NCBI RefSeq assembly: GCF_003334305.1
Contig: NZ_QOWS01000004.1
Length of the DNA stretch: 64,000 bases
Reading direction: 5' to 3' (one strand)
Origin: Escherichia coli
GTDB lineage: Bacteria; Pseudomonadota; Gammaproteobacteria; Enterobacterales; Enterobacteriaceae
Shown here: positions 22,824-49,515 of the stretch, piece after piece
Layout: each line of letters opens with the position of its first letter
Numbering within the stretch: the first letter of the stretch is position 1
Program-made: the position numbers and the translations under genes
The notes under the pieces: model-generated
Told to the model about the DNA's origin: nothing
Databases searched by the model: none
What the model saw: only the letters and a program-made list of their open reading frames with translations

Positions 22824-22849
22824 CCGGATGCAATACTTGTTGCATCCGG
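22824..22849. terminator. Stem-loop between convergent bglA and ygfF
   Basis: CCGGATGCAA-TACTTG-TTGCATCCGG perfect 10-bp stem; no strong U-run. Confidence 0.4.
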
Positions 22850-22867
22850 TCAGACAACTTCCCTGTT

Positions 22868-23611
22868 TTATTTCCCGCCCGCCAAATCGATAAAACTTCC
22901 CGTGACGTAAGAGGCTTTATCACTTAGTAGCCAGACAATGGCCCGCGCGACCTCTTCTGCCTGTCCACCACGCTGCATGGGGATGTTCGACTTAACGCGA
23001 TCGACGCGTCCAGGCTCGCCGCCGCTGGCGTGCATTTCGGTATAAATAAACCCTGGCCGCACGCAGTTAACGCGGATCCCCTGCGCGGCGACTTCCAGCG
23101 ATAGTCCGGTGGTTAACGTATCAATCGCCCCTTTCGATGCCGCGTAATCAACATATTCCCCTGGCGAACCCAACCGTGAGGCCACCGAAGAGACATTGAC
23201 GATAGCGCCGCCACTGCCACCATTTTTAAGCGCCATGCGTTTTACCGCCTCGCGGCAGCAGAGAAAATATCCCGTCACGTTGGTGGAAAGTACTCGGTTG
23301 ATTCGCTCTGCGGTAAGGTTTTCAACGGTGCACTGGGTAAACAAGATCCCGGCGTTATTGACCAGCGCTGCTAGCGGTTCATCGTGCTGATCGATTGCTG
23401 TAAACATCGCAACGACCTGGTTTTCGTCGCTGATATCCGCCTGGAGCACGAATGCTTTGCCACCGGCTTGCGTTATTAAGTTCATCACTTCCTGCGCCGC
23501 GTGGAGGTTTTGCTGATAATTAACCGCCACCGTATACCCTTCTTGCGCCAACAGTAATGCAGTTGCCCGCCCGATGCCGCGACTGCCACCGGTCACAAGT
23601 GCTATAGCCAT
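22868..23611 (-). CDS. ygfF: Short-chain dehydrogenase/reductase
   Basis: 247-aa ORF with SDR motifs TGGSRGIG (cofactor binding) and YAASK (catalytic). Confidence 0.88.
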   Translation of the reverse strand: MAIALVTGGSRGIGRATALLLAQEGYTVAVNYQQNLHAAQEVMNLITQAGGKAFVLQADISDENQVVAMFTAIDQHDEPLAALVNNAGILFTQCTVENLTAERINRVLSTNVTGYFLCCREAVKRMALKNGGSGGAIVNVSSVASRLGSPGEYVDYAASKGAIDTLTTGLSLEVAAQGIRVNCVRPGFIYTEMHASGGEPGRVDRVKSNIPMQRGGQAEEVARAIVWLLSDKASYVTGSFIDLAGGK

Positions 23612-23696
23612 TTGTTTTTCCGAGAAAAATTAATTCGTTGACGTATCTTTGAGATTGCTAACAAACTGGCTCAATCTTCAATGTTGGCACGCTTTT

Positions 23697-23797
23697 CCCC
23701 TCGCCCTTTCAGGGAGAGGGCCGGGGTGAGGGTAAATATTCGCGCCAGTGCCGGCCTGTTCCCCTCACCCTAACCCTCTCCCCAAAGGGGCGAGGGG
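23697..23797. repeat. GC-rich ~100-bp palindromic extragenic element
   Basis: Outer arms CCCCTCGCCC / GGGCGAGGGG; inner arms AGGGAGAGGG...CCCTCTCCCC and GGGGTGAGGG...CCCCTCACCC. Family name not assigned with confidence. Confidence 0.6.
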
Positions 23798-23832
23798 ACT
23801 GTCTGAGCACTTTTGTACTTTGTCATCTGACT

Positions 23833-23854
23833 AAAAAGGCGCCGAAGCGCCTTT
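23833..23854 (-). terminator. Rho-independent terminator of the gcvTHP operon
   Basis: AGGCGC-CGAA-GCGCCT hairpin preceded on the plus strand by AAAAA (T-run on the minus strand), about 25 nt after the gcvP stop. Confidence 0.7.
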
Positions 23855-23876
23855 AGAAAATAGTCGAATCAGTGAA

Positions 23877-48100: not shown

Positions 48101-48200
48101 TGCCGGATGCGGCGTGAACGCCTTATCCGGCCTACAAAAACCTGCAAATTCAATATATTGCAGGATACGTGTAGGCCTGATAAGCGTAGCGCATCAGGCA
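48101..48200. repeat. BIME: two REP palindromic units in inverted orientation
   Basis: TGCCGGATGCGGCGTGAACGCCTTATCCGGCCTAC (48101-48135) and GTAGGCCTGATAAGCGTAGCGCATCAGGCA (48171-48200), matching the REP consensus, with a small central hairpin. Confidence 0.85.
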
Positions 48201-49354: not shown

Positions 49355-49515
49355 TGTATCGTCGGGCCTTATACTCATCATACTTCAAGTTGCATGTGCT
49401 GCGTCTGCGTTCGCTCACCCCAGTCACTTACTTATGTAAGCTCCTGGGGATTCACTCTCTTGTCGCCTTCCTGCAACTCGAATTATTTAGAGTATGAAAA
49501 AATGCGTGCTCTAAA
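49355..49515. repeat. ERIC/IRU enterobacterial intergenic repeat
   Basis: Minus-strand core GTGAATCCCCAGGAGCTTACATAAGTAAGTGACTGGGGTGAGCG (plus 49412-49455) matches the ERIC consensus; flanking arms extend the element. Outer ends are approximate. Confidence 0.75.

Follow-up and report, generated by a model that had tools for sequence, protein, structure and literature searches.

The window analysed here is the whole stretch of 64,000 nucleotides of Escherichia coli DNA (contig NZ_QOWS01000004.1 of assembly GCF_003334305.1), and all positions refer to it. The locus lies between two genes of the minus strand, gcvP (an ORF of 957 aa, 23877–26750) and ygfF (an ORF of 247 aa, 22868–23611). The window aligns at 99% with E. 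coli K-12 MG1655 (NC_000913.3), and the locus corresponds to 3,045.9–3,046.2 kb of that chromosome. The intrinsic terminator hairpin of gcvP (gcvTHP), AAAGGCGC-TTCG-GCGCCTTT followed by T residues, is located at 23835–23854 on the minus strand. Its stem is a perfect 8 bp, and the T run follows the stem on the minus strand. This terminator was read from the sequence together with the inverted-repeat search; the tail rule of the promoter/terminator scan skipped it. The same scan detected no promoter-like site in 23400–24000. A nested palindrome is located at 23696–23798, and the terminator stands outside it. The palindrome starts 36 nt past the terminator and ends 84 nt ahead of the ygfF ATG at 23611. 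It is therefore extragenic, between the start of ygfF (23611) and the stop of gcvP (23877). Elsewhere in the window, Rfam models match 6S RNA (ssrS) at 33691–33874 and two Sib antitoxin RNAs at 34523–34673 and 34915–35065, as expected in a K-12-like region.

In the 64-kb window, no inverted repeat other than the palindrome has arms of 25 nt or more within 120 nt of each other. According to the inverted-repeat search, the two arms of the palindrome are 40 nt each, TCCCCTCGCCCTTTCAGGGAGAGGGCCGGGGTGAGGGTAA (23696–23735) and TTCCCCTCACCCTAACCCTCTCCCCAAAGGGGCGAGGGGA (23759–23798), with 23 nt between them, and they are 83% complementary without gaps. Once gaps and wobble pairs are permitted, nearly the full length of 23696–23798 is paired. 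The three nested pairs of sub-repeats which had been proposed in the earlier note were all located: CCCCTCGCCC / GGGCGAGGGG at 23697–23706 / 23788–23797, AGGGAGAGGG / CCCTCTCCCC at 23711–23720 / 23774–23783, and GGGGTGAGGG / CCCCTCACCC at 23723–23732 / 23761–23770. Folded as RNA, the gcvP/ygfF-sense strand of 23696–23798 reaches −77.5 kcal/mol, against −46.5 ± 4.1 kcal/mol for shuffled sequences (z = −7.5), and none of the 200 shuffles folds as well. Folded as DNA, the plus strand gives −36.6 kcal/mol (z = −6.6). The 100-bp GC-rich nested palindrome that the earlier note had placed right after the gcvP terminator is thus present, it folds far beyond its shuffles, and its place beyond the terminator hairpin is as described.

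The palindrome consists of two units of a known repeat. The consensus of this repeat is 5'-CCCTCNCCC-N3-6-GGGNGAGGG-N3-GGGNGAGGG-3' (Holder et al., 2015; PMC4666352). Exactly two matches to this consensus were found, at 23698–23732 on the plus strand and at 23762–23796 on the minus strand, and none in 100 shuffles of the window. The motif was first named BoxC (Bergler, 1992; Bachellier et al., 1996) and then PIT element (Hoyne & Maher, 2000), and the same motif was renamed TMECO (PMC4666352). HPG1 and HPG2 are the BoxC family described as putative G-quadruplex motifs (Kaplan et al., 2016; PMC5100583). Table 1 of PMC4666352 contains 23 TMECO copies in MG1655. Among these, no. 10 is CCCTCGCCCTTTCAGGGAGAGGGCCGGGGTGAGGGT (type B mm, sense strand, K-12 3,045,989–3,046,024) and no. 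11 is CCCTCGCCCCTTTGGGGAGAGGGTTAGGGTGAGGGG (type A mm, antisense strand, K-12 3,046,087–3,046,052). The two arms of the palindrome are identical to no. 10 and no. 11 base for base, at the orthologous K-12 position. A second catalogue places the two arms between ygfF and gcvP as HPGQ 32 (HPG2, midpoint 3046013) and HPGQ 33 (HPG1, midpoint 3046063) (PMC5100583). These results show that the 100-bp palindrome after gcvP is a doublet of the BoxC repeat (PIT, TMECO, HPG1/HPG2). This copy is already known, since it is tabulated in both papers (PMC4666352, PMC5100583). The K-12 RefSeq record has no repeat feature in this interval, where an old BoxC annotation reportedly measured 56 bp, and the family name is taken from the literature. 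An older K-12 annotation of BoxC has 33 copies of 51–59 bp (PMC5172473), and BoxC was also recovered as a stem-loop family with a conserved predicted fold (RNAz P of 0.99) by Petrillo et al.

A 116-nt element covering the doublet was searched by blastn. It was found in 5,409 of the 5,426 complete E. coli genomes, at a median of 18 places per genome (range 1–31), and nearly all of the matches are chromosomal. The median of 18 places indicates that the element is a dispersed repeat. The REP core GCCKGATGCGNCG is absent from 23690–23811 even with up to two mismatches, and the ERIC core AAGTAAGTGACTGGGGTGAGCG is absent from the palindrome; its sole match in the window is at 49412–49433. Rfam gives no family at the gathering threshold for the palindrome. 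Long-hairpin miRNA models score 24–33 bits against thresholds of 71–97 bits, and these matches were rejected as weak chance scores which reflect the long hairpin only. The earlier note had proposed a dispersed extragenic repeat of neither REP nor ERIC consensus, and both parts agree with the copy count, the intergenic site and the core searches. It had suggested a comparison with Box C, and this is indeed the family, with the very locus catalogued. A single-copy, unconserved sequence, which would have spoken against the proposal, is not what was found, as the element is multicopy in almost every genome. The earlier note had, however, treated the 100 bp as one element. The palindrome stands, but it is not a single unit: it is made of two inverted BoxC units of about 36 nt, of subtypes B and A. 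A palindrome that arose by chance from GC-rich sequence, or a structure specific to this locus and outside any repeat family, has the general GC-richness of the element in its favour and nothing else. Against it stand the 200 shuffles, none of which folds as well, the 100 shuffles without the consensus and the tens of copies per genome; this explanation is refuted, and we give it practically no probability.

Elements of the other two families are present in the same window. An exact REP core is found at 48102–48114, within a REP/BIME cluster at 48102–48199, which overlaps an Rfam match to ES036/CssrF at 48136–48178. The match at 49412–49433 is an exact match to the ERIC2 primer and belongs to an ERIC/IRU element.

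The plus-strand unit at 23698–23733 is a BoxC/TMECO unit of type B 'mm', CCCTCGCCC-TTTCA-GGGAGAGGG-CCG-GGGTGAGGG-T. The minus-strand unit at 23761–23796 is of type A 'mm', CCCTCGCCCC-TTT-GGGGAGAGGG-TTA-GGGTGAGGGG. Each arm is composed of three 9-nt blocks, in the order C-block, loop of 3–6 nt, G-block, linker of 3 nt and second G-block. What distinguishes the two arms is the linker (CCG in type B, TTA in type A) and the first loop. The six near-identical blocks (C3TCNC3 / G3NGAG3) make up the imperfect palindrome of about 100 bp. Between the units, the central spacer AAATATTCGCGCCAGTGCCGGCCTGTT (23734–23760) forms the loop of the long hairpin. On the type-B side, the outer flank CGCTTTTC (23690–23697) is T-rich, and its C run has 4 or 5 C depending on the strain. 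On the type-A side, the outer flank is ACTGTCTGAGCAC (23798–23810). According to a comparison of five K-12 doublets, the other copies have GGGGAC-N-G-NNN-GAGCAC at this place, and the flank 23798–23810 probably belongs to the 51–59-bp BoxC unit.

Four other K-12 doublets were read directly, at hrpB-mrcB, fepB-entC, alx-sstT and lldD-trmL. The first three have the same layout as the gcvP copy, that is, type B, spacer and inverted type A. In the gcvP copy, the type-B (+) and type-A (−) units face each other over a spacer of 27–29 nt. The spacer of fepB-entC and alx-sstT (28–29 nt) is homologous to that of the gcvP-ygfF doublet, and the spacer of hrpB-mrcB is shorter and different. The K-12 doublets have in common the T-rich flank on the B side and the GGGGAC-N-G-NNN-GAGCAC flank on the A side. 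That three K-12 doublets have homologous spacers and outer flanks indicates copying of the whole doublet as one unit. In the lldD-trmL pair the arrangement is reversed, with the hairpins inward, and the spacer is 59 nt long. The pairing of A with B on opposite strands, as seen at gcvP-ygfF with CCG on the plus arm and TTA on the minus arm, is also observed in the other K-12 doublets if the linker variants CTG and TCG are allowed.

Two folds of the doublet were compared, the single long hairpin and a fold of three hairpins. In the gcvP-ygfF copy, the local hairpins between C-block and G-block contain one G·A mismatch each, which is the published 'mm' type. The three variable block positions are all Watson-Crick paired across the arms. 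This cross-arm pairing makes the single long hairpin far more stable than the three hairpins in this copy. The energies are −75 to −77 against −45 to −46 kcal/mol as RNA, and −37 to −38 against −21 kcal/mol as DNA. When G-quadruplexes were taken into account in RNA folding, the minimum-energy structure of the palindrome was still the plain hairpin.

According to megablast, the full region 23450–24050 is present in 3,026 of the 5,426 complete E. coli genomes. In the remaining genomes (about 44%, including O157:H7, ST131 and LF82), the match is restricted to the part right of about 23831, which comprises the gcvP terminator and gcvP. Together with a comparison of alleles, this defines a variable segment of about 1 kb with approximate boundaries 22835–23831, which contains ygfF and the BoxC doublet. 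Genomes lacking the segment have about 100–125 bp of unrelated sequence with a REP-like palindrome in place of ygfF and the doublet. In O157:H7 and ST131, about 165 bp with a REP-like palindrome separate bglA from the gcvP terminator, and neither ygfF nor the doublet is present. The gcvP terminator is intact in both forms. The right breakpoint of this presence/absence polymorphism is about 33 nt from the doublet, which lies just inside the edge. In some strains bearing the segment, ygfF is annotated by RefSeq as a pseudogene, owing to a frameshift (STEC383) or an internal stop (WCHEC115106); ygfF appears to be dispensable.

Among strains carrying the segment, the doublet shows 99% mean column identity across seven alleles. 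Such near-invariance indicates that the doublet is not visibly unstable on that timescale. The polymorphisms are the C-run length of 4 or 5 (23694–23700) and a C-to-T change in the outer block (23791). One lineage, NWU_4, has lost the 6 nt ACCCTA between adjacent CCCTC repeats (23765–23770). Matches from O111-type strains show the same 596-nt span as NWU_4, as far as the alignment span goes. Larger losses were observed at other doublets. In strain 7_14_50A, 64 nt of the hrpB-mrcB doublet are lost between two direct GGGAGAGGG blocks, and in strain SSGw2, 77 nt of the alx-sstT doublet are lost between two direct CCCTCTCCC blocks. Each of these deletions leaves a single clean hairpin. One hrpB-mrcB allele is without any BoxC element, and no target-site duplication is visible in it. 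More generally, no target-site duplication was evident between filled and empty alleles at gcvP-ygfF and hrpB-mrcB, where the ends of the element are fuzzy. At two independent loci, CAAAGC in the empty allele takes the place of the type-A flank of the filled allele, which ends in GAGCAC; a target preference or a deletion scar could account for this. At the alx-sstT site, strain E21 and others have a very GC-rich cassette of about 330 nt instead of the doublet, with no Rfam match at the gathering threshold. The same kind of loss was described previously as a 'palindrome effect', and TMECO loci are far more variable between strains than control intergenic regions (PMC4666352). The block-to-block deletions, and the location of the gcvP-ygfF doublet at the edge of a polymorphism, support this published link with instability.

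The distribution of the doublet outside E. coli was scanned in GTDB r220, with one genome per species, using the pattern GAGGG-N3-GGGNGAGGG, 10–40 nt, CCCTCNCCC-N3-CCCTC. This inner-doublet pattern was found at at least 120 loci. The matches listed include Hydrogenophaga, Pseudomonas, Sphingomonas, Novosphingobium, Polaromonas, Rhodoferax, Hyphomicrobiaceae, Bradyrhizobium, Azospirillum and Cellvibrio, as well as metagenome-assembled genomes (MAGs) labelled Thermoanaerobaculaceae (Acidobacteriota), Phycisphaeraceae (Planctomycetota) and Clostridium. The lineages among the matches listed are thus Alpha-, Beta- and Gammaproteobacteria, and MAGs of other labels. The outer hairpins of C-block, loop and G-block were no part of the search pattern, and they flank both sides in most of these loci. 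A Rhodoferax MAG contains many copies of a longer nested palindromic repeat (at least 230 nt) which has the doublet at its centre and gives rise to long spurious ORFs. A wide distribution of the single unit is already known from 3,610 TMECO units in 262 proteobacterial genomes (Holder et al., 2015; PMC4666352). A high copy number is seen in Enterobacter asburiae LF7a, with 143 copies. Phages almost lack the family (3 of 50,697 records), and few plasmids carry it (410 of 72,556, including many megaplasmids or mislabelled chromosomes). The Campylobacter phages MG065686.1 and MG065691.1 have three places each of about 50 nt, 92% identical to the type-A arm, which is odd for an AT-rich phage.

Among the matches listed, 80 doublets have the full consensus. 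Within their local hairpins, the variable positions form Watson-Crick pairs in 139 of 160 cases, and these pairs switch between T-A and C-G. Complementarity was observed in 77 of 80 doublets for the two innermost blocks, and in just 55 of 80 for the outermost long-range pair. These results indicate that the pairing conserved in the family as a whole is that of three adjacent hairpins, not of one long hairpin. Of the 125 doublets among the matches listed, only 4 have the same 3-nt linker in both arms. Among these matches, the combination TTR with CNG was counted 46 times against 26.9 expected, and CNG with CNG once against 12.8 expected, in counts that include multiple copies from one genome. 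The rule of type A with type B known from E. coli appears to be general, and as far as we found, the BoxC/TMECO literature searched contains no statement of the generality of the unlike-arm doublet. The unlike arms could reflect a polar REPIN-like unit, or a survivor effect from the elimination of perfect palindromes. A strand-specific test for G-U wobbles in the linkers of 129 doublets among the matches listed gave 53 ties and no clearly preferred strand.

The family was studied experimentally by others. Single strands form a triplex in vitro with a Tm of 70–82 °C according to NMR and CD, and these spectra cover type A, type B and mismatch variants; a published control oligonucleotide is the G-to-C mutant of the exact 36-mer present on the minus strand here (PMC4666352). 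In K+, G-quadruplex-like CD spectra were obtained in vitro, and Mg2+ gave alternative spectra (PMC5100583). When the complementary strand is present, the duplex is formed, and DMS footprinting in vivo showed the duplex and no triplex (PMC4666352). DNA polymerase stalls at PIT elements in vitro. These elements act neither as promoters nor as terminators, and RNA polymerase, reverse transcriptase and conjugation are unaffected by them (PMC4666352). The copies have no consistent orientation or distance to genes, and their neighbours belong to no consistent functional class (PMC4666352, PMC5100583).

Several readings of the doublet were weighed. REPINs are REP doublets mobilised by RAYT transposases, and the BoxC doublet might be a mobile element of this kind. 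The inverted pair would be replicated, an enzyme comparable to RAYT would mobilise the single-stranded hairpin in trans, and single units would be decayed halves. The architecture fits the REPIN concept, which reportedly goes back to Bertels and Rainey in 2011. K-12 has 5 doublets and 13 singlets, the copy number of 1–31 places per E. coli genome fits as well, and the homologous spacer and flanks of three K-12 doublets point to copying of the whole. The doublet of three blocks facing three blocks is spread over the at least 120 loci in Alpha-, Beta- and Gammaproteobacteria and MAGs, and its arms are systematically unlike (linkers identical in 4 of 125 among the matches listed). However, comparable filled and empty alleles show no target-site duplication, and the near absence from phages and the rarity on plasmids are unfavourable. 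In addition, the surroundings of the 120 loci among the matches listed, up to a distance of 1.5 kb, contain no recurrent transposase-like ORF. According to clustering of ORFs, the recurring neighbours of these doublets are ABC ATPases, LysR regulators and dehydrogenases only. The largest ORF cluster was rejected, because it consists of spurious ORFs through the repeats of the high-GC Rhodoferax MAG. The unlike arms, moreover, may be what is left after perfect palindromes were deleted. We therefore consider a REPIN-like mobile doublet unlikely. The more specific proposal that the doublet, and not the single unit, is a conserved, pan-bacterial polar module of REPIN type made of two unlike three-block arms is slightly less likely again. 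If it were true, a widespread enzyme or single-strand process would recognise the G3NGAG3/C3TCNC3 blocks and copy the doublet.

REP/BIME elements can act as a barrier to 3'-exonucleases or as a transcriptional insulator. By analogy, the doublet might work as RNA, where gcvP read-through or the 5' leader of ygfF would fold at −77 kcal/mol and serve as such a barrier or insulator. The gcvP/ygfF-sense strand folds into a very stable hairpin, whose site between a terminator and the next co-oriented gene would be suitable. A role in termination was presumed for CCCTCTCCC-NN(N)-GGGAGAGGG hairpins at gene 3' ends in Enterobacter sp. 638 (PMC2869309), and the conserved BoxC fold predicted with an RNAz P of 0.99 (Petrillo et al.) is in line with it. 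This role nevertheless seems improbable to us, as the doublet lies downstream of a canonical intrinsic terminator which is intact in the roughly 44% of strains without the doublet, and PIT elements had neither terminator nor promoter activity when assayed (PMC4666352). Family members also take no consistent orientation or distance to genes, and the Rfam search gave nothing above threshold, only weak chance matches to miRNA models. It was also considered that the G3-N3-G3-N3-G3-N3-G3 tract on each strand is a non-B-DNA switch, which would alternate among the duplex, hairpin, triplex and G-quadruplex forms and in this way control transcription of the neighbours. The K+-dependent G-quadruplex-like and Mg2+-dependent alternative CD spectra (PMC5100583) and the triplex seen by NMR and CD (PMC4666352) are consistent with such structures in vitro. 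Footprinting in vivo showed duplex instead of triplex (PMC4666352), the neighbouring genes have no common functional class or spacing, and the quadruplex-aware RNA fold of minimum energy is a plain hairpin. A switch of this kind is thus very unlikely.

The BoxC doublet after gcvP is probably best regarded as a structure-prone, non-autonomous and non-coding repeat with no dedicated role for gcvTHP or ygfF, and we hold this reading with moderate confidence. During replication, or if transcribed, the single-stranded doublet would fold into the long hairpin; local hairpins, a triplex or a G-quadruplex may also arise from it. With six occurrences of one 9-mer, in both orientations, the doublet invites deletion, and slipped-strand or recombinational deletion would take place between these repeats. 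The demonstrable effect would then be local genome instability, and BoxC loci would mark indel-prone intergenic sites. The link with instability is correlative; the repeats might simply gather in regions that are already variable. We infer the absence of a regulatory role from the experiments on the family as a whole and from the strains, about 44%, which are without the doublet and keep the gcvP terminator. For the window, the gcvP-ygfF copy is of little weight, because it is a catalogued repeat that has been tabulated twice. The recurrence of the blocks and of the doublet layout in very distant bacteria fits a purely neutral element poorly, and it suggests a dedicated mobilising activity or a selected property. 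As the unlike-arm doublet extends far beyond the enterobacteria, a dedicated copying mechanism is worth seeking.

Compared with known systems, the structure-prone BoxC doublet resembles REPINs in its two short imperfect palindromic units, inverted around a short spacer to give one long hairpin, in the occurrence of both singlets and doublets, and in its restriction to intergenic DNA. It differs from them in that it has no REP core, no known RAYT-like partner and none found within 1.5 kb of the doublets listed, and in that the BoxC unit has three blocks (C-G-G), whereas the REPIN unit is a simple stem-loop. With REP/BIME (PU) elements it shares a dispersed, extragenic, GC-rich and hairpin-forming character and a frequent location after the ends of operons, but it belongs to another sequence family, as seen from the missing REP core in 23690–23811. 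The partners of REP are gyrase, Pol I and IHF in BIMEs, and we know of no such protein partner for BoxC. ERIC/IRU elements (about 127 bp for ERIC) are likewise dispersed, intergenic, imperfect palindromes, although the BoxC sequence is unrelated to them. With BoxC/PIT/TMECO/HPG itself, the doublet has in common the consensus, the intergenic site, the multicopy nature and the inverted pairing of A with B, and at the level of the element the two do not differ.
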